From NCBI GenBank assembly GCA_964651135.1, contig CAZYYK010000002.1, forward strand, positions 15,669-39,668: 24,000 nt of DNA, in the 5' to 3' direction. Below the pieces are notes generated by a model. That model was not told where the DNA came from and ran no database searches. It was given only the letters and a program-made list of their open reading frames with translations. A program made the position numbers and the translations under genes. Below are positions 10,599-24,000 of the stretch, in pieces. This stretch comes from an uncultured Gammaproteobacteria bacterium (lineage in GTDB: Bacteria; Cyanobacteriota; Vampirovibrionia; Gastranaerophilales; Gastranaerophilaceae). The first letter of the stretch is position 1. Every line of letters begins with the position of its first letter.

Positions 10599-10663
10599 TC
10601 CTTTTATTTTTTCCTCCTACATTTATTCAGCAAGGAGGGTGTCTCCCTCCTCACTGTATCTAT

Positions 10664-10692
10664 AGTGTACCACATATTTTCTTTCTTGTCAA
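10664..10692 (-). promoter_or_regulatory. sigma-A-type promoter (early-promoter family)
   Basis: The minus strand reads TTGACA (10692..10687), a 17-nt spacer AGAAAGAAAATATGTGG, then TACACT (10669..10664). It is near-identical to the promoter at 15495..15523 from -35 through about +10. A 7-bp GC hairpin (AGGAGGG/CCCTCCT, about 10633-10651) follows. Confidence 0.55.
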
Positions 10693-10730
10693 GTTTTTTA
10701 TCTGCTTCGTTACAAATATTAAGTGTACCA

Positions 10731-11993
10731 TTAAAAGATGCTTGGAATGGTTTTTGCTTGTATAATCCATGACTTCCTCCCACTAATCCTAGTCATATTA
10801 GCCATTTTAGGTGTCTTCATTCCTTTTGGTGCACTACTAAAATCAATTTTGTTTCCTTCTATGTCCATTAATATTGCATATCCAGTGGACATTCTACCTT
10901 TGATAAAATACTCATTGCCTAAATATTTCACCTTGTCAAATTTCCTAAATCCTTGTATTTTACCTGTAGGTATTCTTTGTTGACTTCTAACCCCCTTTGT
11001 TTGTTGGTAATCACCTTTAGGTATACACTTTTTTAATATTACTATATCTGATTTAAACCTAATATCTTTTCCTTGACTAGCAATCACCACAGCATCCATA
11101 TAATGTTCCTTTGGTAAGCCTATTACCTGTCTATGTTCTTTTGTGATAAAGCCAAAGGTTTCTTCTGCTTGTGGCAGTCGTCGGAGTAACTGTATTCTTA
11201 TGCTATTCATTTGGGTGGCATGTTTCAAATGTCCTTTAACTTTACCACCTTTTAGTACTATATCTCCCTTGTGCGCATGATCATGGCAAGTCTTACATAG
11301 TGTCATTAGGTTTTCTTGTTCATCTGAACCACCATCTTTCCTAAATACAATATGATGCACTTCTAATTTCTTTTCCTTGCTTTTACCTTTACAATTTTGG
11401 CAAGTATGATTATCTCTAGCTAAAACATATGCCTTAGTATTGGCAAACCCGTAGTTAATACCTCTTTGATACAACCACTTGTTTTTCAACACACTTGGAT
11501 TTTTCAAGGCATGAGGGTCAAATGTAGCAGTCTCTATTATTATTTTAGTTATGGGTAAAATAGTTTTAACAAAGTTAATCTCTTTCATATGACTGTCAAT
11601 TTTACTAATCATAGTTGGAGAGAATCTATCTATTTTAATACTGCTCTTTCTATTTAACCATCTTGGTTTCCTATATCTGGTCTTTCTACTCCTTCTATTC
11701 CTACGATATTTTGATCTCTGTGTCATTTTGTCTGATATGTCATTCCTAATTTCTACTTCTGATATATAGACAACTTCTTTCTTATCATTTACAACAGCAC
11801 TACCTATTTTACTACTTCCAGTATCTATTCCCAAAGTTAATTCTTGTGTATAATCAGTAGCCTCATAGAGTAACTTAATTGTAAATGGATTTCTTTTAAT
11901 ACATTTTGCCTTGGCTTGTTTTAATAATAATCTTGCTATTACTGGACTACAAGGCATTAAAGCTTTGTTTTCAGTTGATATTACATAAACCAT
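10731..11993 (-). CDS. iscB: IscB RNA-guided nuclease (RuvC split by HNH, Cas9-ancestor family)
   Basis: The 420-aa ORF carries, in order: a PLMP-like N-terminus (NKALMPCSP), RuvC-I LGIDTGSSKIGSAV and the Arg-rich bridge helix RSKYRRNRRSRKTRYRKPRW. These are followed by RuvC-II IIETATFD, HNH CQNC...LEVHHIVFRKDGGSDEQENLMTLCKTCHDHAH and RuvC-III EHYMDAVVIA. The C-terminus reads GFRKFDKVKYLGNEYFIKGRMSTGY. The RBS is AGGAGG, 7 nt before the ATG. Confidence 0.9.
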   Translation of the reverse strand: MVYVISTENKALMPCSPVIARLLLKQAKAKCIKRNPFTIKLLYEATDYTQELTLGIDTGSSKIGSAVVNDKKEVVYISEVEIRNDISDKMTQRSKYRRNRRSRKTRYRKPRWLNRKSSIKIDRFSPTMISKIDSHMKEINFVKTILPITKIIIETATFDPHALKNPSVLKNKWLYQRGINYGFANTKAYVLARDNHTCQNCKGKSKEKKLEVHHIVFRKDGGSDEQENLMTLCKTCHDHAHKGDIVLKGGKVKGHLKHATQMNSIRIQLLRRLPQAEETFGFITKEHRQVIGLPKEHYMDAVVIASQGKDIRFKSDIVILKKCIPKGDYQQTKGVRSQQRIPTGKIQGFRKFDKVKYLGNEYFIKGRMSTGYAILMDIEGNKIDFSSAPKGMKTPKMANMTRISGRKSWIIQAKTIPSIF

Positions 11994-12275
11994 AAATTAG
12001 CCTCCTAATAAATGCTCTACTATAAAGTAGGTTATGCGTATCTTATTACTTTGACCATAACAAGAATCCGTCCTCACTTCGATAATGATAAAATAGCTTA
12101 CATATATATTACACCGAGCCTTTCCATCAACTCTTCTTAATAATATATGACAGGGCAACAATCTAGTGCGTCAATTGAAGGTGTCATAACTATTCTATCG
12201 TAGCTAGTGTTTCTACTAGCTTAATCTGGTGAACTCAGGCTTTTGAAGCCACTACCCTTTAGGGTAGTTGGTAGT
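11994..12275 (-). ncRNA. candidate omega RNA (HEARO-type) of the IscB element
   Basis: This 282-nt ORF-free interval lies immediately 5' of iscB on the same strand, the canonical omega RNA location. It contains a dense set of hairpins. One is a 9-bp stem with one bulge at 12249-12271 (CCAACUACCC/GGGUAGUGG on the RNA strand). Others are GGCUU/AAGCC at 12238-12250, AGCUAGU/ACUAGCU at 12202-12221 and UAUGACA/UGUCAUA at 12146-12152 with 12182-12188. No covariance model was run. Confidence 0.6.
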
Positions 12276-14624
12276 TCACCTGATAGGGCATACTCCAGAT
12301 GCACATTCAGGGTCAGACTCTATATCTAGTTCTAAATCTTCAAACTCCTCCTCATTCTTTTCATACTTCTGAATTAGGTTGGGGTTAAAAGGTTTCAGCC
12401 CTTTCTTCATCTCTTTATATTCTTCTTCTGAGATAGCTTCATAAGGCATGAGCTGGTAGAATCCTCCATCATCTGGTAAGAAGGAAATCCCCACATAACT
12501 ATCCCAATTATTCCATAGCCACTCCTCTACATCATCCCACTCATCTGGTTTTACAGTCACCGTGATGGATGTATTTTGGTCTGTGTAGAAATCTTGGAAC
12601 ATCTTATAGGTTTCTAATTGCTCTACAGCTGTGAAGGAAGATTTGGTTCTTGTTACCCCACTTTCCACAGGGAATTCTACTACTTTGGTATTTACATTTT
12701 CCCCTTCTTGCCCTACTTCATTCTTAACTACCCAACCCAATTCCTCACAAACTTTGACAAGAGGGTCAGATGCAGAAATTCTGATTCTTCTGATAAAGAA
12801 GGGGGCGTGAGATGCATGGACTCCCGGGCTTACCCCTCCAAAAATCAAACCTAAAGTACCGTTGGGGGCTACAGTGGTAACATTGGTGGATTCATTTAGG
12901 TTATGGGTCTTGGCAATCTCTTTGTTAGCTTTATGAGCTACTTCTCTAAGTGAGGTGAGAATCTTTTCTTGTTCCTCTTTTGTAATGTTCGTTCGCTCTA
13001 CAAAATCTTTCCATCCAGTGATTCCACATCCAGTGAGTCTGTGTTCTTTTTGTACCCTATCCCATGTTGGTAGTTCAAGGTCTACCAACGTCATTCTATA
13101 TCCAGCTCTGGCTGATAGTTCCTGTGCCCTCTTAATTTTCTCTAAATCATAACCACCTTTCTCATCTACAAAAGAAGAGATGTTCAGGGAAGTGAGGTTG
13201 CAACATTGTCTGGACTTCAATAAGATTTCTCCACAAGCATTGGTTCCAGCAAACTCAGGGAATCTTTTTCTGGCTGCTTCCCCATTAATGATTCCCGGCT
13301 CTGCTGACAGTACCATAGTTTGGATAATGTCTTTTAGTTTTTCTCTGGTAGGTTTCTCATCAAATATAATACTGTTGTTTGACATCATTCTATGTAGTAG
13401 TTCTTCATTGGCTTTCCATTCCCCTTTCTTTTCATCTACCACATAGATATTGTCTTTGGCATGAATCATTTCTTCGTCATCTGGGTCAATAAAAGAGATA
13501 CAAGCACTTCTTCTTACTGCTCCTGATACTACATTCTCTGCAATGGAAGTACAGATATCCATTACATCAATGGGTTTTAATCTTCCCCCACTTTTAGTAA
13601 TGACTTTGTGAATCTTGTTGAACATCTTTTGGAGAGGCTTACTTCCACTGGCAAATCCACCAAACTTCATTAGTCTTTCTCCAGCAGGTCTTACATAATC
13701 ATAGTCAATGATAATGGTGTCAATAATTTTGTAAGCGTGCTGGGTATGAATTTCCATGAAGAAATCTAAGGCTTTGTGGAATCCTTCTTTGCTATCACCA
13801 ATGGTTAAGGTGGCTATATTCTTGTCTACAGTAAGCTGTGTGACATCCTCTCTGTCTTTCTTCTCTACAAAAGTCCATTGCTTATTAACTAAAAAAATGT
13901 CTGTGCGGAACTCTGGTAGTTTGTTGACGTATTTCTTTTGTGCCCCAATACCAATCCCCACTCCCAACATGAGAACATAGAACATCTCTCCAAAAATATA
14001 GATATCATCTACTGCTGTAAAAGAGCAGTTGAAGTTTTGTAAGGAAGATATTTTGGAGACTGGGCTCCCACCTGTGAATAGAGTTCTCCCACTAAGCTGT
14101 TGTCTACCATGATAAATGTTGTCAAACAACTCTTCTGCTTCTTCTTTTGTGCTGTAGGGAGAAAGGCTAATATTATAATCAACTGCTCTGGCAATGGATT
14201 CCCAGAATCTTTCTCTTCTCCCCTCTTCAGGAAGGTATCTACTATACGTTCTGTAGAAGGTGAAGCTAGCTACTTCATTGAGGGGGTCAGGAAGATGTTT
14301 ATACTTACTAAGAAACTCTTCACTAAGGAATTTGTATTTCTTTTCCTTCCCCACTTTTCTTAATCGATTCTTTTTAGAACGATACTCGATATAGTTCTTG
14401 GCTGTTTTGTAGAATCCTCCTGCCATTAACTTCTGCTCTACGAAGTCATGGATGTCGTTAACGGAAGGTAAGCCCATTTCTTTGCAATCTTTCTCTACTT
14501 CTTTGGCAATTCCTTTTATTTTGTCGGCATCTATCTCTTCTACATCTGCTGAAATGATGGCATTTACGATTTTATCTTTGTCAAACTTTTCGGTCTTTCC
14601 ATTTCTTTTTAGTACTTCTAACAC
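12276..14624 (-). CDS. nrdJ: class II (adenosylcobalamin-type) ribonucleotide reductase with N-terminal ATP-cone
   Basis: The ORF is 782 aa. Its N-terminus VLKRNGKTEKFDKDKIVNAI is ATP-cone-like. The active-site motif is TNACGEILL (class II NPCGEI type). The C-terminal redox pair is CASGVCPIR. No nrdB/F partner is nearby. The start is GTG at 14624..14622 after AAAGGAG. Confidence 0.8.
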   Translation of the reverse strand: MLEVLKRNGKTEKFDKDKIVNAIISADVEEIDADKIKGIAKEVEKDCKEMGLPSVNDIHDFVEQKLMAGGFYKTAKNYIEYRSKKNRLRKVGKEKKYKFLSEEFLSKYKHLPDPLNEVASFTFYRTYSRYLPEEGRRERFWESIARAVDYNISLSPYSTKEEAEELFDNIYHGRQQLSGRTLFTGGSPVSKISSLQNFNCSFTAVDDIYIFGEMFYVLMLGVGIGIGAQKKYVNKLPEFRTDIFLVNKQWTFVEKKDREDVTQLTVDKNIATLTIGDSKEGFHKALDFFMEIHTQHAYKIIDTIIIDYDYVRPAGERLMKFGGFASGSKPLQKMFNKIHKVITKSGGRLKPIDVMDICTSIAENVVSGAVRRSACISFIDPDDEEMIHAKDNIYVVDEKKGEWKANEELLHRMMSNNSIIFDEKPTREKLKDIIQTMVLSAEPGIINGEAARKRFPEFAGTNACGEILLKSRQCCNLTSLNISSFVDEKGGYDLEKIKRAQELSARAGYRMTLVDLELPTWDRVQKEHRLTGCGITGWKDFVERTNITKEEQEKILTSLREVAHKANKEIAKTHNLNESTNVTTVAPNGTLGLIFGGVSPGVHASHAPFFIRRIRISASDPLVKVCEELGWVVKNEVGQEGENVNTKVVEFPVESGVTRTKSSFTAVEQLETYKMFQDFYTDQNTSITVTVKPDEWDDVEEWLWNNWDSYVGISFLPDDGGFYQLMPYEAISEEEYKEMKKGLKPFNPNLIQKYEKNEEEFEDLELDIESDPECASGVCPIR

Positions 14625-15450: not shown

Positions 15451-15494
15451 TATTTTCTCTCCTCTCTTTCTTCTGTATTTCTTACGGTATACAT

Positions 15495-15536
15495 AGTGTA
15501 TCACATATTTTATCTTTTGTCAACTTTAAGTGGTGT
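15495..15536 (-). promoter_or_regulatory. sigma-A-type promoter with upstream ACACCACT box
   Basis: The minus strand reads ACACCACT (15536..15529), TAAAG, TTGACA (15523..15518), a 17-nt spacer AAAGATAAAATATGTGA, then TACACT (15500..15495). Confidence 0.6.
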
Positions 15537-15568: not shown

Positions 15569-16048
15569 CTAAATTCCTAAGCGATTCAGTCTCTTTATCT
15601 TTTCCTCCTTCTCTGGGTCATCTATCTTGATATCAAACACTCCTCTCTTTAACCACTTCCTGAATTTCACTATCATGTGAACTTGGTCTCTTCTAAACCA
15701 TCTTCCTTTGATTCCTTTAGCATTATAGTTCCTGTAGTAGAAGGGGAGCTGGGGAGTGGTCTCAGGTTTCCAATACTCAGGGTTCTCGTACCAATTATAG
15801 TAATGCTTGAATCTTGTCATAGAGATTCCTGTTAGATTGGGTATGTGCCAGTGAGCGATAATAGGGAAACCAATTCTGGGTACTCTCTTGTTCATCTCCA
15901 TCCACTCAATTAGAACCTGATAATCTAAGGGTAAATCTGTATAGGGTCTTTCTAAGGATTGATTGATGACTGTATGGCTTACTGTTTTCTTTCCCTCTAC
16001 CTCATCTACCAAATCCCGTAGAAACTTTTTTACTAATTCATTCTCCAT
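15569..16048 (-). CDS. hypothetical protein (Trp/Tyr/Arg-rich)
   Basis: This 159-aa ORF has the RBS AAAGGAGGGGA before the ATG at 16048 and its own promoter at 16073..16116. No motif was recognised. Confidence 0.55.
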   Translation of the reverse strand: MENELVKKFLRDLVDEVEGKKTVSHTVINQSLERPYTDLPLDYQVLIEWMEMNKRVPRIGFPIIAHWHIPNLTGISMTRFKHYYNWYENPEYWKPETTPQLPFYYRNYNAKGIKGRWFRRDQVHMIVKFRKWLKRGVFDIKIDDPEKEEKIKRLNRLGI

Positions 16049-16072
16049 CTTCTCCCCTCCTTTTCTGTTTAT

Positions 16073-16116
16073 AGAATATCATATCTATTCAGGAAATGCA
16101 ACCCTAAAAGTGGTGG
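16073..16116 (-). promoter_or_regulatory. candidate sigma-A-type promoter with CCACCACT box
   Basis: The minus strand reads CCACCACT (16116..16109), 7 nt, TTGCAT (16101..16096), a 17-nt spacer, then TATTCT (16078..16073). It is divergent from the promoter at 16133. Confidence 0.45.
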
Positions 16117-16132
16117 ATGAGTATTTTCTTTT

Positions 16133-16175
16133 ACACCACTTCTAAATTGCTTTTCAGTTTATTTGTTTGTATAAT
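16133..16175 (+). promoter_or_regulatory. sigma-A-type promoter with ACACCACT box
   Basis: The sequence reads ACACCACT (16133-16140), 6 nt, TTGCTT (16147-16152), a 17-nt spacer, then TATAAT (16170-16175). Confidence 0.55.
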
Positions 16176-16181
16176 AAAGGC

Positions 16182-16362
16182 AAGGTAGCAAGGAGTGAAA
16201 TGTTAAAGACCCACTTACACCTACGGGAATATTCGGAACATATTCTAAACACAACTAATCAAGGGATTTCGCACACCGTCCACAAACTTCTTTAAGGTTT
16301 GTGGATGAGAGGACTGCTCCTTGCTTACCTACTCTTGAGGTTCTCGATGAGCCTCTTTTTTT
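16182..16362 (+). ncRNA. candidate structured small RNA (~180 nt), alternatively mRNA of a 31-codon sORF
   Basis: The unit is bounded by the promoter at 16133-16175 and the terminator at 16337-16362. A 13-bp closing stem pairs 16183-16195 (AGGTAGCAAGGAG) with 16317-16330 (CTCCTTGCTTACCT, one bulge). Internal hairpins are GAATAT/ATATTC (about 16227-16245) and CCACAAAC/GTTTGTGG (about 16280-16304). The sORF ATG 16200 to TAA 16295 (MLKTHLHLREYSEHILNTTNQGISHTVHKLL) has its AAGGAG buried in the closing stem. Confidence 0.4.
16337..16362 (+). terminator. rho-independent terminator
   Basis: The stem GAGGTTC (16337-16343) pairs with GAGCCTC (16349-16355), 7 bp including one G-U, with loop TCGAT. Seven T residues follow at 16356-16362. 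Confidence 0.65.
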
Positions 16363-16489
16363 ATACCTTGAATCAATTATATATTTATACATAAGTATGA
16401 ATAATTATATCACTTTATTATAAGTTTTTATTTTCTTATGTGCATCTGTGTGTACATAATAGTTAGTGTAAAAACGTGAAGAGCTTAGA

Positions 16490-16563
16490 TTTCAACGTTT
16501 AGTGATAAAAGCACTTTAGTCGGGTGGGGTGAATAAAATTCATTTCGCTATTTTTCAACGTTT
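16490..16563. repeat. direct 11-bp repeats TTTCAACGTTT (two perfect copies, 63 bp apart)
   Basis: The copies lie at 16490-16500 and 16553-16563, with a degenerate third copy TTTCAATGGTT at 16640-16650. The first copy can pair with AAACGTGAA at 16472-16480. Confidence 0.6.
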
Positions 16564-16656
16564 CTTACTTTTTAGGGCATTTTTAGTTGTAAATAGTGTA
16601 GTTTTTACAAGTAATGACAAAAGCTCACAAATGGCTTGATTTCAATGGTTACAGCC

Positions 16657-16699
16657 ACACCACTATAAAATTGACAAAACCTATTTTACGGTGTATAAT
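16657..16699 (+). promoter_or_regulatory. consensus sigma-A promoter with ACACCACT box
   Basis: The sequence reads ACACCACT (16657-16664), 6 nt, TTGACA (16671-16676), a 17-nt spacer ending in GTG, then TATAAT (16694-16699). Confidence 0.65.
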
Positions 16700-16815
16700 A
16701 AAGACACCCCGAAGGGAAAACACCCACCCGTAGGGTGGGGCTATAAATCTACCGCTGTATTTAATACCTGCTAAAACCATATAGCTATTATTTACTGTAA
16801 TATTTTTTAGCTGAG

Positions 16816-16850
16816 TCTTTTTCTTTTAATCTTTTTCTTTTAATCTTTTT
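16816..16850. repeat. 14-bp polypyrimidine tandem repeat TCTTTTTCTTTTAA, 2.5 copies
   Basis: Copies lie at 16816-16829 and 16830-16843, with a partial copy at 16844-16850. Confidence 0.9.
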
Positions 16851-16957
16851 AGGTTCACCAGAGTATAAGTATAGTTAGCATCGCTATAGTATTAGATTTC
16901 TCTCTTCCCCCAATCACTGACATGATTGGTAAAATATCTCCCAAATATTAGATGATA

Positions 16958-17007
16958 AAGTTATCAACATTTGCACCAACATTTGTGGATAACTTTGTTG
17001 ATAACTT
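16958..17007. promoter_or_regulatory. DnaA-box-like cluster inside a 12-bp inverted repeat
   Basis: TTATCAACA lies at 16961-16969 (+). TGTGGATAA at 16984-16992 is a perfect TTATCCACA on the minus strand. TGTTGATAA at 16996-17004 is TTATCAACA on the minus strand. A 12-bp inverted repeat pairs AAGTTATCAACA (16958-16969) with TGTTGATAACTT (16996-17007). The direct repeat CAACATTTG occurs twice between them. Confidence 0.5.
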
Positions 17008-17045
17008 AGGGGAATGAAGAATAACTACTAACACTACTACTACTA

Positions 17046-17088
17046 ACACCACTGAAAGATTGCTTTTTCTATAGATAGCAGATATACT
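17046..17088 (+). promoter_or_regulatory. sigma-A-type promoter with ACACCACT box, upstream of endonuclease gene
   Basis: The sequence reads ACACCACT (17046-17053), 6 nt, TTGCTT (17060-17065), a 17-nt spacer, then TATACT (17083-17088). Confidence 0.55.
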
Positions 17089-17135
17089 ACCCAAGTAGCT
17101 GAAGATGTGGAGCTAAGCAGCTTAGGAGTGATAAG

Positions 17136-17549
17136 ATGACAAATAAAATAGGATTAATGGGGGGAGCCTTTGTAATCGCTAACTTTATTGATATGGGAAT
17201 ACCAGTGTACACCCCAGTAGATAAGAGTGGTAAGGTAGATTTGTTAGCCTACTTTGATGGAGAGTATCAGAGAATACAAGTAAAGTCCAGTGGTACAGTT
17301 AGTTTGCATGAGACAGATGCCAGTAAAGGTATGTATACTTTTAAGTTAGTAGAGGATAATTTGAATAAGAATGGGTATAGTAAACACATATATACGAAAG
17401 ATGATATAGATTATTTTGCACTGTATCATGTTACCAGACACACTATGTTTCTCATTCCTGTAGAGGAAGCCCTTGCTCAAAATATTACTTTTAGTTTTGG
17501 TATTGGTGGTTATAATGATGAAATAGAGAGTGAGTATCGTTTTAATTGA
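17136..17549 (+). CDS. PD-(D/E)XK endonuclease of the group-I-intron-associated (I-Ssp6803I-like) type, free-standing
   Basis: The 137-aa ORF has the pattern G..G..V.......G..VY.P......VDLLAYFDGEYQRIQVKSS ... IDYFALY......FLIPVEE, matching my recollection of the PDDEXK_5 family (D...QxK core). The RBS GGAG lies 7 nt before the ATG. Confidence 0.55.
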   Translation: MTNKIGLMGGAFVIANFIDMGIPVYTPVDKSGKVDLLAYFDGEYQRIQVKSSGTVSLHETDASKGMYTFKLVEDNLNKNGYSKHIYTKDDIDYFALYHVTRHTMFLIPVEEALAQNITFSFGIGGYNDEIESEYRFN

Positions 17550-17625
17550 TTTCTTAGCAAGAATTCTCCCACTTATAGAAGGTGGGAGATGAATTGCTAA
17601 TATATTATTTCACAAGGAGGAATAA

Positions 17626-18357
17626 ATGAATTTTGAAGAAAGAGATAAAGTAAAAAACTTACTTAATGTAGGTGATAAAGGATATGTTCGCTTAGTAGAT
17701 ACACTAGGTAGCGATTTGACTGCTGCAAATGCAGCCAGAGTGTCTTATGCGAAGGAATCAAAAGAACTTAGTGATAAAGATATTCGTTTGATTCACTTCC
17801 TTGGTAGAGAAAATCATACTTCTCCTTTTCGCCACGCTATTCTTCAATTTGAAGTATACGCTCCTCTTATGGTAGCACGACAATGGTGGAAATACGTCAT
17901 TGGTTCACATCATCAAGAGGGCATTGCTGATAGTTTGAACGCTTGGAATGAGTCGAGTCGCAGATACATTGCTGAAGAAGTTGAATTCTACTTACCTAAA
18001 GAGGGAGAATGGCGTTCCGCTCCAGAGAACTCAAAGCAAGGTAGTGGAGAGCCTTTTGATACGGATAAAGGTAGGACTTTTACAGAATCGTTAGAGCAGT
18101 ATCAAGAATTAGGAAAACGTCTTTATAATTCAGTTGTTGCACAAGGAGTAGCAGTTGAACAAGCAAGACTTTTCCTCCCTGCATATGGACTTTATGTTCG
18201 TTGGTATTGGACTGCATCTCTTCAATCTGTATTTCATTTCGTAGATCAGAGAACTAAGCATGATGCTCAAAGTGAGATTCAAGATTACGCAAGGGTAGTA
18301 GAAACACTCGCAAAAGAACATTTTCCAGAATCTTTTATCGCTTTAGGAAAGAAATAG
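17626..18357 (+). CDS. thyX: flavin-dependent thymidylate synthase (ThyX fold) with atypical signature motif
   Basis: The ORF is colinear with Thermotoga ThyX as I recall it: GYVRLVDTLGSDLTAANAARVS, HTSPFRH, APLMVARQW, NESSRRY, EQARLFLP, DAQSEIQDYA. The RHR of the ThyX motif reads KYV here, and about 8 residues are inserted before NESSRRY. Confidence 0.85.
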   Translation: MNFEERDKVKNLLNVGDKGYVRLVDTLGSDLTAANAARVSYAKESKELSDKDIRLIHFLGRENHTSPFRHAILQFEVYAPLMVARQWWKYVIGSHHQEGIADSLNAWNESSRRYIAEEVEFYLPKEGEWRSAPENSKQGSGEPFDTDKGRTFTESLEQYQELGKRLYNSVVAQGVAVEQARLFLPAYGLYVRWYWTASLQSVFHFVDQRTKHDAQSEIQDYARVVETLAKEHFPESFIALGKK

Positions 18358-18432
18358 CAATTTTTTTAAGTGAGGTGAATTCATGGTGAAATCCAAGCAG
18401 TTCACTTGATTTCTCTCCAATTAACTAAAATA

Positions 18433-18474
18433 ACACCACTTAGAATTGACAAATAGAAAGATATGTGATATAGT
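18433..18474 (+). promoter_or_regulatory. sigma-A-type promoter with ACACCACT box
   Basis: The sequence reads ACACCACT (18433-18440), 5 nt, TTGACA (18446-18451), a 17-nt spacer ending in ATATGTGA, then TATAGT (18469-18474). A 9-bp leader hairpin TATAGCCTT/AAGGCTATA lies at 18495-18522. Confidence 0.6.
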
Positions 18475-18577
18475 ATAGATAGATGGGGAGGGGATATAGC
18501 CTTGACTACCATCAAGGCTATAAGATATTACCGTAAACAGAATGGGCTAAACCAGTGAAAAAAGAGGAGTCGGAAGA

Positions 18578-19396
18578 ATGAAATTAAACACCATTTCTAA
18601 TGAAGATTGTTTAGAAGGCAAGAAGCAAATGCAATTAGATGAAATTGAATTCAAAGAAATAACCAAAGAAGAAACAAAAGAGATTTTATTGAACTACCAT
18701 TATTTGCAAAGAATGCCTCCTTTGTCAGTAGCTTTTGGTGCTTTTCATTCAGGGAGGTTGGTCGGTGTCATGACTTTTGGGAAACCACCCAGCAACTCTC
18801 TTTGTAAAGGGGTGGCTGGTGAAAGTTTTTCAGGTAATGTATATGAATTAAATAGGTTGTATACATTTGAGGACACACCAAAAAATCTTGAGAGTAAATT
18901 TATATCCTACGCATTAAAAAAATTAAAACAACGGAACTGGATAGTAATTTCCTATGCAGATGAGTCTATGGGGCATAGTGGTTATGTTTACCAAGCGACT
19001 AATTGGATTTATACAGGTAAATCAGCTAAGCGAACAGATGTATACGTTGGGGAAAATGGACATTCGAGAACATATTCTAATTTTCAAAAAGACTTTGTTG
19101 TGCGAAAAGTTCGCTCCACCAAACATAGATACTTATACATATGTGGGGATAAAAATTTCAAAAAAGAAGTGTTGGAGAATCTGAAATACCCAATTATAAA
19201 TGAGTATCCTAAAGGTGAAGTTAGACATTATGAAGTTGGCGAAACAACGAATGATATTTTATACCACAAAAAGACTCATGAAATATTTACGGAAGATGAA
19301 TTTATTAAAAATCCGTCAAAATATCTTTCGGAAGATGAGTTAAATTACTATAAGAAATATTATTTGCCAGAATCAGAAGTGTTAACGTTATTCTAA
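18578..19396 (+). CDS. putative Mom-like GNAT-fold DNA-modification protein (adenine methylcarbamoylation family), moderate assignment
   Basis: The 272-aa ORF has the pattern LNYHYLQRMPP..FGAF..GRLVGVMTFGKP....ELNRL......N.ES.FIS.AL..L......IVISYADESMGHSGYVYQATNWIYTGKS. This matches my recollection of Mom-family/GNAT-like phage proteins. It was not verified by search. Confidence 0.45.
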   Translation: MKLNTISNEDCLEGKKQMQLDEIEFKEITKEETKEILLNYHYLQRMPPLSVAFGAFHSGRLVGVMTFGKPPSNSLCKGVAGESFSGNVYELNRLYTFEDTPKNLESKFISYALKKLKQRNWIVISYADESMGHSGYVYQATNWIYTGKSAKRTDVYVGENGHSRTYSNFQKDFVVRKVRSTKHRYLYICGDKNFKKEVLENLKYPIINEYPKGEVRHYEVGETTNDILYHKKTHEIFTEDEFIKNPSKYLSEDELNYYKKYYLPESEVLTLF

Positions 19397-19435
19397 AAAG
19401 AGAGAACAAAATAAAAACCAATGGATTTGGAGGGA

Positions 19436-19468
19436 AAGAAAAAGGAGATGAGAACTAACTCATCTCCT
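19436..19468 (-). terminator. rho-independent terminator at the end of the lysis operon (possibly bidirectional)
   Basis: A perfect 10-bp stem pairs AGGAGATGAG (19443-19452) with CTCATCTCCT (19459-19468) around a 6-nt loop. On the minus strand the stem is followed by TTTTT (19443-19439). Confidence 0.65.
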
Positions 19469-19505
19469 AATTTAATAACTTTACATCTTGAATGTAAAGA
19501 AGAAA

Positions 19506-20117
19506 TTAATCTCTGGATTGCACATGAACGTTTCCAGAACCTCCACCATCCAACATTTCTCGAATGGCTTCTACATCCTCATCATTACTTACATAATCCT
19601 CCTCCACTACATCCACAGGTACATTATGTGCATCCTCCCCAAATTCCTCTTTATACCCTTCATCAGGGAGTTCTTCAGGATATTCACAATCCTTTTGAAT
19701 GGGTACAGCAACAGGAACTACCTCTACATCACCATACTTTTTAGATTCATTGATTTGAGATTCAATCTCTGCTTCAATAAATACCGTAAAGTCTTTGTGC
19801 ATCTTTTCAACAGCTGCCCTACCTTCAGCATCTACTTGCTGTTCAACCAATTTCTTAGTTCGATAGAAAGCTTCACGCATTGCTTCCTCATCAAACTTTC
19901 CTTCCTTCTTCAGTTCATCAACAAATCGTTGATTGGTGAAGTTAATGGAACGGGCAATGGTTTGCAGTACCATTTGTACATTTTCTCGTACATCTTCATT
20001 CTTAATATTCTCCGTTTTCTTTAAGAAGAAATTAAGAGCTACCAGTACCAGAGCTACCAGTGCAGGAGAAAGTACAGCAATGGCAATTCCACCCAAAAAT
20101 CCAACATCCAAATTCAT
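19506..20117 (-). CDS. membrane protein, LL-H-type holin-like, with long acidic C-terminal tail
   Basis: The N-terminal TM segment is FLGGIAIAVLSPALVALVLVALNFFL. The helical region ending in FIEAEIESQI resembles the LL-H holin family. The gene lies directly downstream of the endolysin gene. The C-terminus is rich in D/E. Confidence 0.5.
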   Translation of the reverse strand: MNLDVGFLGGIAIAVLSPALVALVLVALNFFLKKTENIKNEDVRENVQMVLQTIARSINFTNQRFVDELKKEGKFDEEAMREAFYRTKKLVEQQVDAEGRAAVEKMHKDFTVFIEAEIESQINESKKYGDVEVVPVAVPIQKDCEYPEELPDEGYKEEFGEDAHNVPVDVVEEDYVSNDEDVEAIREMLDGGGSGNVHVQSRD

Positions 20118-20143
20118 AACATTACCTCCGTATATTTTATTTT

Positions 20144-21622
20144 CTAACCCTTAGCATTAAAGGGAACAGGAATAAATTCATTTTCCCAATCTTTTATCTT
20201 TCTATTATCCGCAATAAAAGCACTTACTGTTTTCTCATCTTCCTCTTTTCCTACCCCAACTTTAATGAAGATGTAGTAAGGATAGATGTTTTCATTCCCT
20301 ACATAGATGATTCTCTGGAACAGTTCTGTAGGAGTCATCCCATAGTCGAATTGTACAGCACCACTCACTTCTTTAATGATTTGATTCACATACTTTTGAT
20401 GGGATGCCTGAAGAGTGAATACACCAAATCTGGGTTGCATCTTGAGTAACTCTTCTTTTGTGAAGGCTTTATTGAGATAAATTTTCTTATCTTCTTCTTC
20501 CTTCTCTTTCTTTTTCACTTGCTCATCAAACAAATAAAGCTTATTTCTTTCAATGACATCATCTAATTTCTTCTTATAGTTAGGGTCAGTCGCATAGGTA
20601 CCAGTAAGAGCTTCTGTAGCTTCCTTATAATCCTTAGCTACTAACACAGGGGCATATAACTTTTCCCTTGTGGGGGTAGAAGTAAAGAATTTCCCATGGT
20701 CTGTAATGGACTCTTTCCAATCCTTATATTTTCTAAAGGAGGATTTAACTTCCCTCTTAGAGCCGTTAATATATTCAATAGAAACCTTATCATATACAGC
20801 CCCAGTCCACGGAGCAGATGCCTTAATCCCAAATATGTTATTAGCATGAACTGCCAACACACTATTCCCACTATCACTCTCTAAAATAGCTTGAGCTAAG
20901 GAGATAGAAGGTAACACTCCACTCTTGTAGTAATCAGCAATGATATCATCTCGAATCATATTGATAAAAGCGGGGGTAGTAAGAGTCGTTCTTTCTATCG
21001 GTTTAGTTTTTTTTACCCCATAGTGTTCAGCTACTACTCTTGCTACTTCTTTAGCTAAAGCATCTCTTTTATTCACTATGAAATCTCTATCCTGTCGATT
21101 AGTATGATAAGCAAACTCAATTAGCATCCCCATAGGAGCTTCACTTGCCCTTAACACACCAAAATAGTTAGATTGATAGGGGGGAGAAGTAACATTGGTT
21201 TTATATACATTATTATTATTCCATGTCCTAACTCCTCTATTCGGAGTACCTAATGCACTTATCGCTCTGGACAATTTCCATGCTAAATCATATCCAGATT
21301 GTCCTACACTCTTCCAAGGATTGGTATCAGGAAATATCTCAACTCCTCGAACATTAGAAGCCCCAGCATTGGAGTGGAGAGAAAGAAGTAAATCATATCC
21401 TTTCGCCATAGCACCCCTTTGAGCTAAGGTAGGATTCTCATGGATAGTTTTCCTTGTCCTTCCTACAGTAATTCCATAGGCTTTAAGCTCTCTTTCTAAA
21501 GCAATAGCCATATAGTAATTAGACTCCCCTTCATTTCCCGGGCTAAGAAATCCTCTATTATGAGAAGAACCAGAACCATGTCCGGGGTCTAACAATACTT
21601 TTAATTCAGCCATACTATTCAC
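20144..21622 (-). CDS. bifunctional endolysin: N-acetylmuramoyl-L-alanine amidase (Amidase_3) + glucosaminidase domain + C-terminal domain
   Basis: The amidase motifs are KVLLDPGHGSG, LLLSLHSNAG, VEIF and LIEFAYHTN. The glucosaminidase motif is SLAQAILESDSGNS..ANNIFGIKA. The ORF is 492 aa, with RBS AAAGGAGGTG. Confidence 0.85.
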   Translation of the reverse strand: MNSMAELKVLLDPGHGSGSSHNRGFLSPGNEGESNYYMAIALERELKAYGITVGRTRKTIHENPTLAQRGAMAKGYDLLLSLHSNAGASNVRGVEIFPDTNPWKSVGQSGYDLAWKLSRAISALGTPNRGVRTWNNNNVYKTNVTSPPYQSNYFGVLRASEAPMGMLIEFAYHTNRQDRDFIVNKRDALAKEVARVVAEHYGVKKTKPIERTTLTTPAFINMIRDDIIADYYKSGVLPSISLAQAILESDSGNSVLAVHANNIFGIKASAPWTGAVYDKVSIEYINGSKREVKSSFRKYKDWKESITDHGKFFTSTPTREKLYAPVLVAKDYKEATEALTGTYATDPNYKKKLDDVIERNKLYLFDEQVKKKEKEEEDKKIYLNKAFTKEELLKMQPRFGVFTLQASHQKYVNQIIKEVSGAVQFDYGMTPTELFQRIIYVGNENIYPYYIFIKVGVGKEEDEKTVSAFIADNRKIKDWENEFIPVPFNAKG

Positions 21623-21660
21623 CTCCTTTTATAGTAAAATAGATTAATACACTAAAGTAT

Positions 21661-21702
21661 ATCATACCACACTTTAACAATAAATGCAATTTTTGTGGTG
21701 TG
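21661..21702 (-). promoter_or_regulatory. candidate sigma-A-type promoter with CACACCAC box upstream of endolysin gene
   Basis: The minus strand reads CACACCAC (21702..21695), AAAAA, TTGCAT (21689..21684), a 17-nt spacer ending in TGTGG, then TATGAT (21666..21661). Confidence 0.5.
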
Positions 21703-21729
21703 AATTTTTACAGAAGCATTACAGAAGCA

Positions 21730-22134
21730 TTACATAAACAGATTAGGGAAAGCAACCCCTAACAAGTAGGTGACAAAAGCAGCTGTAATTGCCCATATAA
21801 TCTTACTTTCCACGGCTCTTCTTTTCGATAAAGGTTCAGAAAGGTGGTCATCTATTCTCATATCTCTAATTTCCTTCATCTCTTCATTATTTTTTTGAGC
21901 CATTTCTCTAAGGAGAACTGTTAACTCTTTAATTTCAGTTTTAATTTCACGTAGAGCCTGTTCCACTGTCATACCTTGTTGCTTCAGTAATTCCACATCC
22001 GTATCTAATCTCTTAATGGCAACTTCTGAACTTCTTACATCAGCTTTTAATTCATCCAATTCTTCACTTAGGGAAAGAACATCCTTATCTAAAGCACTTA
22101 CTCTTTCTTCTACTCTTGGTAATCTTTCTTGCAC
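21730..22134 (-). CDS. XhlA-like lysis-associated membrane protein (coiled coil + C-terminal TM)
   Basis: The 134-aa ORF has an N-terminal coiled coil (RVEERVSALDKDVLSLSEELDELKADV...) and a single C-terminal TM segment (IIWAITAAFVTYLLGVAF). It lies immediately upstream of the endolysin, as in PBSX-type cassettes. Confidence 0.5.
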   Translation of the reverse strand: MQERLPRVEERVSALDKDVLSLSEELDELKADVRSSEVAIKRLDTDVELLKQQGMTVEQALREIKTEIKELTVLLREMAQKNNEEMKEIRDMRIDDHLSEPLSKRRAVESKIIWAITAAFVTYLLGVAFPNLFM

Positions 22135-22178
22135 TGAGACCCCACCTCCTTTTTGTATATTTTATACTTAACTACCAT

Positions 22179-22529
22179 TTAGCAGACCTTGTCCACAATA
22201 TCAACCACTATCTTAAAAGGTTTATTATTCACCCATGTCCTAACAATGCTTCTTTCAGCATTAGAATATTCAATATCATAACTATAAGAACCTGTTGCTA
22301 AGTTTTCTGTATCTTGTGGGTCTATTTGAATGATTGCTGTACCATCTTCTCTAATCACTGCCCTCTTACAGAAAGCATACACTGAGTCCTTACTTCTTTT
22401 CTTTACCCCAAAATGTATTACAGAATCAGGGGGAAAAGGAATTTTAACACCTTCTTTATAATTACTAATAGAAAGAGCAAAACTATCCCCCCTGACTAAT
22501 GTAATGGCAAGGGTTTTATTATCAATCAT
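22179..22529 (-). CDS. hypothetical phage protein (beta-rich, possibly structural)
   Basis: The 116-aa ORF has the pattern LVRGDSF.L.I........F..DSVIHFGVKK......K.AVIREDGTAIIQIDPQDTENLATGSYSYDIEY, reminiscent of small Ig-like phage virion domains. No firm family was assigned. Confidence 0.4.
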   Translation of the reverse strand: MIDNKTLAITLVRGDSFALSISNYKEGVKIPFPPDSVIHFGVKKRSKDSVYAFCKRAVIREDGTAIIQIDPQDTENLATGSYSYDIEYSNAERSIVRTWVNNKPFKIVVDIVDKVC

Positions 22530-22726
22530 CTAATCAACCCCATTATTGTAATTACTGTAAATTTTCCCATTGTCCGTCTTTTAGTACAAACACATCTTCA
22601 ATAGGCTTCCATACACCATCTTTCAACACGAAACCAGACTCAGCTTCCATCCACTGACCATCCCACAGGATGCGCTGGTTTTTAGGGTTCGGGGTAGATG
22701 TAGGGCCACCTCCTAGAAAAATATTC

Positions 22727-22864
22727 TTACTTAGGTATTCTAGGTGTTGTCATAATCATACCTTTTTCATCTACTGTAATTCTTTTCAAGGTTACCATAG
22801 TATCTAAATAATCTTCTTCAATCCTATTCATAATCCACATATTCAATAGAAAAGCATAAATCAT
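22727..22864 (-). CDS. XkdX-like small phage protein (45 aa), below the ORF-track size cutoff
   Basis: The ORF runs from ATG 22864..22862 to TAA 22729..22727 and reads MIYAFLLNMWIMNRIEEDYLDTMVTLKRITVDEKGMIMTTPRIPK. The W..g.i..E..l...V...rIT.dE pattern resembles the XkdX family. Its start abuts the stop of the upstream ORF. Confidence 0.4.
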   Translation of the reverse strand: MIYAFLLNMWIMNRIEEDYLDTMVTLKRITVDEKGMIMTTPRIPK

Positions 22865-22865
22865 T

Positions 22866-23180
22866 TTACATACCTCCCATTAATAAGAACAATAAAGTAT
22901 CTTCTGCCATTTGTAGCCTCTCTTCCAAATCTGGTGTAGGCAATAATCCTTCTTTTGCAATAGCTAAATTCAGCCATTTATCATAGTTGTATTCCACATC
23001 TAGCTTTAATCCCTCCCTATAAGGTACTTCTATTGAATAATAATCATACTCGAATATTATTCCTACCTCATCTTCTTGTGTTTCTACTTCTCTGATGTTA
23101 TTAAATAGAGAAATAATAGCATTATCTCCCACCTTATCAACTTCAAATAGCCTTGGCTTTATTCCGCTTTCTGCTTTCAT
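22866..23180 (-). CDS. hypothetical phage protein (occupies the XkdW-like slot before the XkdX-like ORF)
   Basis: This 104-aa ORF overlaps the 3' end of the RT gene by 38 nt. No motif was recognised with confidence. Confidence 0.45.
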   Translation of the reverse strand: MKAESGIKPRLFEVDKVGDNAIISLFNNIREVETQEDEVGIIFEYDYYSIEVPYREGLKLDVEYNYDKWLNLAIAKEGLLPTPDLEERLQMAEDTLLFLLMGGM

Positions 23181-24000
23181 TACTAACCACCTCTTTCATG
23201 TCTTTTATATCTACATAAGGTTTTATATTTTTAAGATAATAATTGTATGAATTACTATGTTTTAACCACCCTAAGTAACTCAACATAGCAGCGCTATCTT
23301 TAAAATTTAATTTTTCTTTCTTGTAAATCTTTTTAGCCCTTCTCTTTATTCTTAATGCGTTTCTTTTTCTCATCGTTACATGAGTTCTGTAAAATTTAAA
23401 GCCTAGAAAATCTAAAGGTCTTTTATCTAACCGATATACTTGCCAATTATGTTTTAAGTTTAATCCTATGGTTTCTAAATATATTTCTATTTCTTTTCTT
23501 GCTTTGTGTAGTTTCTTCTTGTTGTTTCCAAATAATATGCAGTCATCCATGTACCTAACATAATATTTAATATTCAACTTTTCTTTAATCATATGGTCGA
23601 ACTCTTGTAAGTAGAAATTAGCTAACCATTGAGAGGTATAGTTGCCTATAGGCAATCCTTTTTCTACACTATCGATGATTGCATCCAGTAGCCAAAGTAA
23701 GTCTTTATCCTTAAATTTCTTCCTAAGAAATTCTTTAAGGACATCATGATTAATTGAAGGATAGAATTTAGTAATATCTATTTGTAGTACATATTTAGTA
23801 TGTTTTCTATCTCGTTTAACCCATCTTTTAACTCTCTTTTGTGCATAATGAATACCACGTTTTGGGATACTACCACAAGAATATTCATACATTCCTTTAG
23901 CCATATAAGGCTCTATAATTTGCATGATTGCCCAGTGAATACATTGGTCTGGATAAAATTTAGGCTTAAATATAACCCTTTCCTTGCCACTGGCACCATC
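23143..24000 (-). CDS. diversity-generating retroelement (DGR) reverse transcriptase, N-terminus beyond the right window edge
   Basis: The frame stays open upstream of the track ATG to position 24000 (...DGASGKERVIFKPKFYPDQCIHWAIMQIIEPY, RT motifs 1-2). Other motifs are KFYPSINHDVL and GLPIGNYTSQWLANFYL (the DGR-specific IGxxxSQ in place of QGxxxSP). RYMDDCILFG, LKHNWQVYRL..LDFLGFKF and LSYLGWLKHSNSYN are also present. The ORF is colinear with Bordetella phage BPP-1 Brt as I recall it. Confidence 0.85.
   Translation of the reverse strand, partial: DGASGKERVIFKPKFYPDQCIHWAIMQIIEPYMAKGMYEYSCGSIPKRGIHYAQKRVKRWVKRDRKHTKYVLQIDITKFYPSINHDVLKEFLRKKFKDKDLLWLLDAIIDSVEKGLPIGNYTSQWLANFYLQEFDHMIKEKLNIKYYVRYMDDCILFGNNKKKLHKARKEIEIYLETIGLNLKHNWQVYRLDKRPLDFLGFKFYRTHVTMRKRNALRIKRRAKKIYKKEKLNFKDSAAMLSYLGWLKHSNSYNYYLKNIKPYVDIKDMKEVVSNESRKRNKAKAI

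Follow-up and report, generated by a model that had tools for sequence, protein, structure and literature searches.

An iscB gene and its omega RNA inserted at the end of a phage nrdJ gene, with a guide that matches the insert-free allele of sibling phages

Features of the locus

The DNA analyzed in this study is a stretch of 24,000 nucleotides (nt), positions 15,669 to 39,668 of contig CAZYYK010000002.1 (assembly GCA_964651135.1), which is referred to as the window. On its minus strand, a gene for IscB, an RNA-guided nuclease, and the omega RNA that precedes it form an element that is inserted at the 3' end of an nrdJ-like gene within a phage replication module. A preliminary description, made from the letters of the window, had proposed an IscB with a structured upstream RNA on the same strand, and both were confirmed by our searches. 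The main features are listed below in window coordinates, where RE denotes the right end of the transposon.

10705 to 12279, minus strand: whole inserted element, 1575 nt (1578 nt with the duplicated CAG), delimited by comparison with 21 empty loci and with the occupied locus L044
10731 to 11993, minus strand: intact iscB, 420 amino acid residues, identified by Pfam, structure-profile matches and alignment of homologs
12001 to 12006, minus strand: AGGAGG ribosome-binding site, read from the sequence, 7 nt 5' of the iscB ATG
12015 to 12279, minus strand: scaffold of the omega RNA (HEARO), identified by Rfam RF02033 and covariation, whose first nucleotide is the RE-side transposon terminus
12280 to 12295, minus strand: guide segment GAGTATGCCCTATCAG, the last 16 nt of nrdJ, directly 5' of the scaffold
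12276 to 14624, minus strand: nrdJ-like gene for a class II ribonucleotide reductase (RNR), with the Pfam domains ATP-cone, RNR_Alpha, RNR-II_ins_dom and Ribonuc_red_lgC and a match to PHROG 367 at 1e-167

The iscB gene and its product

The motifs of IscB follow one another along the polypeptide as RuvC-I (GIDTGS), the Arg-rich bridge helix, RuvC-II (IIETATFD), HNH (HH..N..H) and RuvC-III (HYMDAVV). The RRXRR family (PF14239) was matched at 1.6e-52 over its whole profile (1-174 of 174) and the HNH family (PF01844) at 6.9e-12. Of the solved IscB structures, OgeuIscB was matched at 1e-37, with residues 1-111 aligned to residues 3-115 of OgeuIscB, and HfmIscB was matched across residues 3-385. 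When a profile built from 26 homologs was used, the OgeuIscB match rose to 4e-50. Residues D57 of RuvC-I, E154 of RuvC-II, H213/H214, N228 and H237 of HNH, and H297/D300 of RuvC-III aligned to the catalytic positions of OgeuIscB, and all of them were invariant across the 26 homologs. Their presence agrees with what had been noticed from the sequence. The HNH domain lies between RuvC-II and RuvC-III, and the D / E / H..D set of the split RuvC domain is complete. Judged by these alignments, the open reading frame (ORF) encodes a full-length, true member of the IscB family that has kept all catalytic residues and is predicted to cleave DNA in a manner that is guided by RNA and dependent on a target-adjacent motif (TAM).

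The closest IscB proteins, which were 87–89% identical, came from metagenome-assembled genomes (MAGs) of Clostridiaceae and Tissierellaceae, and an exact look-up of the window IscB sequence found no record. The ratio of nonsynonymous to synonymous substitution rates (dN/dS) of iscB against its relatives was 0.09–0.12, and a dN/dS of about 0.1 indicates that iscB is under purifying selection within the family. Residues 308-420 are conserved among the 26 homologs. A transfer of TAM specificity from OgeuIscB was considered and dropped, because the profile search against the Protein Data Bank (PDB) stopped short of the C-terminal domain.

The omega RNA and its guide segment

The covariance-model search that had been proposed for HEARO gave a match at 12279..12070(-) of 115.4 bits (gathering score 83, E-value 1.6e-23) that covered the whole model (1-211 of 211), and HEARO was the sole Rfam family above threshold in the window. 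The score was as good as those of the related loci. The family comparison comprised 17 related loci, of which 13 were compared at the upstream end. RNAalifold predicted 68 base pairs from 13 related loci, 39 with compensatory changes, including two covarying hairpins outside the Rfam model, which extend the scaffold to about 12015, just 5' of the AGGAGG at 12006..12001. The RE-side hairpin was found at 12268..12251. The preliminary description had placed the RNA at 11994-12275. A structured omega RNA is indeed present there; its scaffold, however, starts at 12279 and includes the TGA of nrdJ.

PHROGs and GenBank label such genes as "HNH endonuclease", which would fit a protein-only HNH homing endonuclease or, as a variant, a nuclease-dead domesticated regulator. 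Given the full-length RRXRR/RuvC match, the presence of the RuvC D-E-H-D residues and a covarying HEARO RNA above threshold, this reading is already refuted and was considered very improbable.

In the published geometry of IscB, the scaffold derives from the transposon RE and the guide from the flank outside the RE (PMC10055086). The start of the element was GTGAAC in 12 of the 13 relatives and TTGAAC in the remaining one, and the sequences upstream of it were mutually unrelated. Since the 40 nt 5' of GTGAAC were unlike one another in all 13 relatives, they represent flank, i.e., guide. At the window locus, the guide falls at 12295..12280, at the 3' end of nrdJ as had been anticipated and within the gene itself, and GAGTATGCCCTATCAG is present only once in the window.

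No promoter-like site was found ahead of the omega RNA in the scanned region, which agrees with the preliminary description, and no terminator was found between nrdJ and iscB/omega RNA. IscB omega RNAs generally rely on transcription from the upstream gene, outside the element (PMC10055086), and the lack of an own promoter together with the lack of a terminator after nrdJ fits this rule. The omega RNA would be made by read-through from nrdJ, with the last 16 nt of nrdJ as its 5' guide and the scaffold following.

Insertion polymorphism at the end of nrdJ

Sibling contigs were gathered via NrdJ variants of the same 90% cluster. Their nrdJ ends were found in three states, empty type 1 (n = 18), empty type 2 (n = 3) and occupied (n = 2). 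The three states are given below, with slashes marking the junctions.

Empty type 1, 18 loci (L037-43, L046-48, L051-58): …GAGTATGCCCTATCAG ATAAAAAACTTGACA…, with the NrdJ end I-R-stop (AGA TAA)
Empty type 2, 3 loci from two samples (L001, L049/L050): …GAGTATGCCCTGTCAG GTGAAAAAACTTGACA…
Occupied, the window and L044: …CCCTATCAG / GTGAACTACC … iscB … ATGGTACACTTAATATTTGTAACGAAG / CAG / ATAAAAAACTTGACA…

The element is an insertion that is polymorphic among sibling phages. L044 was 99.2% identical to the window with the same junctions, and the two occupied iscB copies differed by three amino acids only. The window reads TATCAG/element/CAG/ATAAAAAAC and the empty allele TATCAG/ATAAAAAAC, so that the element entered at CAG^ATAAA, 4 nt short of where the original nrdJ ORF ends (AG^ATAA). 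The first bases of the element, G-TGA, turn AGA TAA into AGG TGA and leave the NrdJ protein unchanged. The insertion at the end of nrdJ that the preliminary description had reported thus stands, with 21 sibling loci empty; it did not land after the stop codon, however, as the present stop TGA (12278..12276) is supplied by the element itself. Carrier and target flanks were more than 95% identical over kilobases. Their single-nucleotide polymorphisms formed a mosaic pattern, with no co-conversion tract joining the occupied and the type-2 alleles. Scans of viral and metagenome contigs with the nrdJ-end and promoter patterns returned one contig only.

Three further features define the far junction, the first two in the flank and the third in the element.

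10702 to 10704, minus strand: CAG, a copy of 12282..12280, the 3 nt that precede the element
10697 to 10701, minus strand: ATAAA, candidate TAM and target motif of the transposase TnpA (TTTAT on the other strand), which holds the original TAA of nrdJ in the empty allele
10705 to 10731, minus strand: tnpA stub of nine codons (MVHLIFVTK, 27 nt), colinear with the tnpA start of the relatives, whose ATG overlaps the iscB stop (TAATGG)

The right end of the element had been predicted at 10693-10705 and was found at 10705, or at 10702 with the duplicated CAG. The RE-side junction, CAG/GTGAAC, lies exactly at the start of ATAAA of the empty allele. Because ATAAA is found in the empty allele at the exact junction, it belongs to the target, which makes the first insertion a canonical one. 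Canonical IS200/IS605 insertion produces no target duplication, and the additional CAG at the far junction is not part of it.

An early reading took GTGA as the TnpA target motif, together with the OgeuIscB TAM NWRRNA (GTGAAA vs GTGAAC). It was dropped because the type-1 alleles show that GTGA arrives with the element and because, according to Meers et al., the TAM adjoins the left end (LE) of the transposon. With the TAM on the far side of the element, GTGA represents the element's own first bases and not a target motif. L001 was also rejected as the ancestral empty site, as its GTGA form is in the minority against 18 other loci.

In two loci, nrdJ (window 12276-12282) and a Pirin gene (L005:4330-4340), insertion did not change the residue at which the upstream ORF ends. 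ATAAA contains a TAA stop and the terminus GTGAA gives TGA, or completes TAG, in frame, which could explain harmless insertion at the 3' ends of genes. Insertion at such sites also secures read-through transcription.

The intergenic spacer at window 10599-10700 hosts IscB or TnpB, depending on the relative. Siblings with the NrdJ variant P0126 (7 contigs) carry a 371-aa TnpB (OrfB_IS605, with a Cas12f1-like TNB domain; L046:4746-6215 and L047:4571-6040). It sits between the promoter and a 98-aa gene, about 60–100 bp from the IscB site, where it replaces about 30 bp that include a hairpin and the region of a ribosome-binding site. A second TnpB gene of 400 aa, cut by the contig end, was found in a type-1 sibling about 1.5 kb upstream of nrdJ (L052:1-921).

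The element family and loss of the transposon far end

In 16 of the 17 relatives the order is RE/omega RNA, iscB, tnpA or its remnants, LE hairpin and ATAAA. The same 16 share a conserved LE hairpin CCACTAGCCTAAAGGCATAGTGG, about 18 nt, an invariant ATAAA and then a variable flank. A tnpA start, where still present, shares bases with the iscB stop (TAATGG). L015 has an apparently complete tnpA frame, and the tnpA of L014 is much longer than those of its closest relatives. Most other relatives have internal tnpA deletions and a few are without any tnpA. The TAM of IscB elements is the TnpA target motif, located 5' of the LE and thus on the far side of the element in iscB orientation; for GstIscB it is TTCAT, which corresponds to ATGAA on the iscB strand (PMC10055086). 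By analogy, we infer that ATAAA (TTTAT for TnpA) is the TAM and target motif of this family.

A search of the whole window for the LE hairpin CCACTAGCCTAAAGGCATAGTGG that allowed up to 3 mismatches found no copy, the 49-nt tail of the element showed no stable fold, and no Y1_Tnp ORF was seen in the window, where tnpA is represented by codons 1-9 only. The statement that no tnpA is visible therefore holds for a functional tnpA and has to be amended for the 27-nt stub at 10731..10705 that follows iscB. Loss of the TAM-side transposon end was missed by the preliminary description. With the rest of tnpA and the far-end hairpin lost, TnpA cannot excise or move the element. From its sequence, the window element is a decayed IscB element of the IS200/IS605 type and not a functional transposon.

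The far end was also missing at one related locus, a chromosomal copy in a Tissierellaceae MAG (L011:4258-4700, 87% identity), where tnpA remnants run into unrelated sequence with neither hairpin nor ATAAA. Several close relatives of the IscB have phage-like contexts, either beside a holin gene or on IMG/VR contigs of 29–135 kb (L061:1866-2240, L009, L027, L028, L031). In L027, L028 and L031, the far-end hairpin follows iscB within about 20 nt and no tnpA remnant is found.

The decayed state might indicate a dead-end passenger, that is, a host insertion sequence that entered the phage with TnpA acting in trans and lost its far end by ordinary deletion, with no effect on phage inheritance even if IscB is made. 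Decay of tnpA by assorted deletions is the rule in the family, and L011 is a second copy without its far end. The occupied copies, moreover, differ by so few residues that selection within the phage is not measurable. A plain deletion, however, would require that the lost end finished in CAG. The last element base before ATAAA in the 16 relatives was T or A and never G, which makes a simple internal deletion an unlikely source of the junction CAG. In addition, iscB and every catalytic residue are intact, the score of the omega RNA is on a par with those of the relatives, and the insertion preserved both the NrdJ protein and the downstream promoter. An inert passenger was considered unlikely, though still a serious alternative.

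Predicted targeting of the empty allele

In all 18 type-1 loci, and thus in 18 of the 21 empty loci, GAGTATGCCCTATCAG is intact and directly precedes ATAAA. The guide therefore matches the common empty allele perfectly and beside the candidate motif, a match that the preliminary description had proposed to look for and that speaks against a passenger. In the carrier, GTGAA, the DNA start of the scaffold, comes right after the guide match, and ATAAA is 1.6 kb away. GstIscB is reported to be very sensitive to mutations of the TAM (PMC10055086). As GTGAA adjoins the guide DNA of every family member and ATAAA lies across the element from it, the enzyme presumably must tell the two motifs apart.

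These results suggest the following route. First arrival would have occurred in the normal way, by insertion next to TTTAT (ATAAA on the iscB strand) at the nrdJ end. IscB with the omega RNA from the nrdJ transcript would then cut the genome of an insert-free sister phage where the 16-nt guide match directly precedes ATAAA. The carrier genome would be spared, since its guide match is followed by GTGAA with ATAAA 1.6 kb off. During co-infection, the cut genome would either be repaired from the carrier, so that the element is copied in by TnpA-independent homing, or be lost, which amounts to exclusion. We regard RNA-guided homing or exclusion between co-infecting phages, independent of TnpA, as the probable function of this locus. 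The homing or exclusion role suggested in the preliminary description thus gains support in silico that falls short of proof: ATAAA as the TAM, expression, cleavage and homing are all predictions.

Several points weigh against this reading. The TAM is deduced from the flanks alone, and cleavage and homing are predictions. The occupied allele is rare, with 2 contigs against at least 21 empty loci, and a strong homing drive might have made it commoner; this rarity also speaks for a passenger. Both occupied copies, the window and L044, go back to a single insertion event, so that homing is not seen to have occurred repeatedly. GTGAA and ATAAA are separated by two purine transitions only, so that discrimination between self and non-self is assumed. 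As L011 has lost its far end too, truncation at this end also arises by plain deletion. The profile search aligned only residues 1-307 of IscB, with no sequence match of residues 308-420, the C-terminal, TAM-reading region, to OgeuIscB. Finally, the AlphaFold2 model built from the 26-sequence alignment had a mean predicted local distance difference test (pLDDT) score of 50, too poor to use.

The same targeting logic would serve a pure exclusion weapon, by which insert-free competitors are cut and degraded with little or no copying of the element. The low frequency of the occupied allele fits poor copying, and homing endonucleases can kill divergent competitors (PMC13565253). Flanks that are more than 95% identical for kilobases, however, favor recombinational repair, and from the duplicated CAG it seems that the element was copied in at least one repair event. 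Exclusion without copying was therefore judged a rather remote alternative to homing or exclusion by an element that can also be copied.

The type-2 allele and the far junction

Compared with type 1, the type-2 minority allele (L001:6463-6500, L049 and L050) reads GTCAG GTGAAAAAAC, and has GTCAGGTGAAAAAAC where type 1 has ATCAGATAAAAAAC. The change of AT to GTG gives the GTGAA of the protected occupied site. The first three bases of the element are thus kept, ATAAA is destroyed, and an A-to-G mismatch lies in the seed, five bases from the motif. Pairing close to the TAM matters for IscB targeting (PMC9640706). Type 2 can be derived from the occupied allele by deletion of the element between GTG/AA and AT/AA. 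It may represent a footprint of excision or deletion and, in addition, be resistant to IscB. It looks like a response to cutting, which argues against an element without effect on its phage.

A passage of PMC12477157 that cites Altae-Tran 2021 places the target-strand cut of IscB 3 nt 5' of the TAM and the cut of the other strand at 8 or 12 nt. The right junction of the window element starts with CAG/ATAAA, which is 3 nt 5' of the TAM and thus, by that passage, the expected position of the HNH cut. In a type-1 genome cut in this way, the end on the TAM side would, once 5' resection has taken place, start exactly with CAGATAAA. The left end would invade an element-bearing genome and copy the RNA gene, iscB and 27 nt of tnpA, after which the nascent strand would be joined to the other end without homology, with CAG as the repair scar.

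Such a cut with one-sided repair would account for both junctions and for the lost transposon end, and we hold it to be about as probable as improbable. Each of the coincidences behind it has a chance of about 1 in 64 on its own. The scenario resembles abortive gap repair and also the one-sided, illegitimate repair known from T4 intron homing. Two other origins of the junction CAG have a low probability: a Gln codon of tnpA brought to the junction by two deletions, and aberrant TnpA excision at a pseudo-site, for which no supporting hairpin is present.

Comparison with known systems

Similar to GstIscB of ISGst5 (PMC10055086) and OgeuIscB (PDB 7xht/7utn), the window locus combines the protein architecture and catalytic residues of IscB with a HEARO-type omega RNA directly upstream. 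Also as in ISGst5, the flank outside the RE provides the guide, the RNA relies on outside transcription, and an AT-rich motif of 5 nt lies on the LE side (ATAAA here, ATGAA, i.e., TTCAT, in ISGst5). Different from ISGst5, the window copy has neither LE nor tnpA. The published role of IscB is to re-cut the donor joint after TnpA excision, termed "restorative homing" (PMC10055086), and this role cannot apply to a copy without LE and tnpA. Different from both ISGst5 and OgeuIscB, it resides in a phage replication module, where the only plausible target would be the empty allele of other phage genomes. Its C-terminal domain is shorter than that of OgeuIscB (420 vs 496 aa for the whole proteins) and not alignable to the TAM-interacting domain of the latter.

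The locus also resembles the free-standing Seg/Mob genes of T4 and their "intronless homing" (PMC13565253). In both cases, a nuclease gene that is present or absent among close relatives lies between conserved phage genes, in a nucleotide-metabolism or replication location with the flanking genes intact, and the gene-less allele is the target. Recognition here, however, would use a 16-nt RNA guide and a 5-nt motif and not protein contacts. Self-protection would be as in intron homing, as the insertion splits the guide match from the TAM. The features of a homing endonuclease locus are thus found together: the locus is polymorphic, the predicted site is the empty allele, and the self allele is disrupted.

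The same cut-and-copy mechanism is predicted for "transposon non-restorative homing", the TnpB-dependent, TnpA-independent spread of IS605 elements among plasmids. IscB and TnpB have been seen as helpers that restore the transposon after TnpA excision; a 2026 review treats non-restorative homing into homologous phages as theoretical, and TnpB on plasmids is the only case in which such a nuclease has been shown to drive spread by itself between homologous replicons (PMC13565253). Our results go beyond that review with a natural phage population whose alleles in metagenomes include occupied, susceptible and apparently resistant ones side by side, and with an element that now would depend on this route. 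The transposase route is physically impossible at this locus, and the guide is still aimed at the insert-free sister allele. Apparently, an OMEGA nuclease has been uncoupled from its transposase and lives as a phage homing or exclusion gene, which suggests how an RNA-guided nuclease can uncouple from transposition, a step toward CRISPR-Cas9.

No paper on the function of phage-borne IscB was found in the literature. HEARO was noted in the genomes of Staphylococcus Silviavirus, without analysis (PMC13346280). Among Silviavirus, IscB was found in seven records, including those of VL10 and CIFT_MFB_MRSA12, and about 45 relatives were without it. The Silviavirus IscB was 27% identical to the window IscB, and its HEARO match was weak (32.5 bits). 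In these records IscB lies between a small ORF and a RusA-like resolvase gene, beside the gene of the RNR beta subunit. In the comparison of phage VL10, which has IscB (L062:1700-3260), with phage Remus (L063:1060-1130), the sequence up to the left junction is that of the empty allele, and the guide flank equals the empty allele. At the right junction, the 5' end of the resolvase gene is duplicated (about 20 nt) and synonymously recoded from ACAAATAGTAAAAAA to ACAAATTCGAAGAAA, with the new resolvase ATG overlapping the stop of IscB; neither tnpA nor a far-end hairpin is present. Similar to the window, IscB and a HEARO-like RNA are polymorphic among close phages, next to RNR genes and without the transposon far end. 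The difference is that the duplicated target is about 20 nt and recoded in Silviavirus, but 3 nt in the window. Two unrelated phage groups thus contain IscB units that lack the TAM-side end. The Silviavirus phages are cultured, which makes the idea directly testable.

Taken jointly, the junction would be the scar of an IscB cut that freed a homing endonuclease, type 2 a resistant survivor that lost the element, and Silviavirus an independent recurrence. We put this combination forward tentatively and as somewhat doubtful as a whole.

Phage context and other observations

The neighbors of the element encode a DnaC-like loader, DnaB helicase, primase, PolA, sliding clamp, ThyX, endolysin and a Mom-like protein. 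Judged by these genes, the neighborhood is a virulent-looking phage module of replication and nucleotide metabolism. The product of the upstream nrdJ carries an ATP-cone and a B12-RNR insertion domain. Megablast with 7 kb as the query found no match, and thus no close DNA relative, among the GenBank phages. Biogas and other anaerobic metagenomes are the source of the sibling phage contigs, and the phage is one of Clostridia-type hosts.

Downstream of the element lies the promoter that had been described as a near copy of a second one, and this was confirmed.

10664 to 10692, minus strand: phage promoter TTGACA-17-TACACT with upstream TG, the best match in the scanned region (10/12), which drives the downstream operon

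The second copy, at 15523..15493(-), forms with it (10662-10692) a 31-nt repeat, of which none is expected by chance. The promoter is kept in every empty allele and is left intact by the insertion. About 25 nt located 5' of the 15.5-kb copy are loosely like the tnpA stub (ATATTGTAA.G..AAGCA), probably by chance in AT-rich DNA.

Near the window edge, an ORF of 260 aa (23143-23925, minus strand) matched the reverse transcriptase family RVT_1 at 4.6e-18; no template/variable repeat pair of at least 40 nt was found in 16000-24000. On the opposite strand, genes were found for a Mom-family protein (18578-19396, 3e-39), ThyX (17626-18357, 7e-34) and a PD-(D/E)XK_5 nuclease (17136-17549), which hint at DNA modification in the phage. 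Finally, the gene of a distant NrdJ homolog (45% identity; L002:6001-9273) spans 3273 nt for 782 aligned residues, and the extra of about 900 nt is possibly an intein or an intron.

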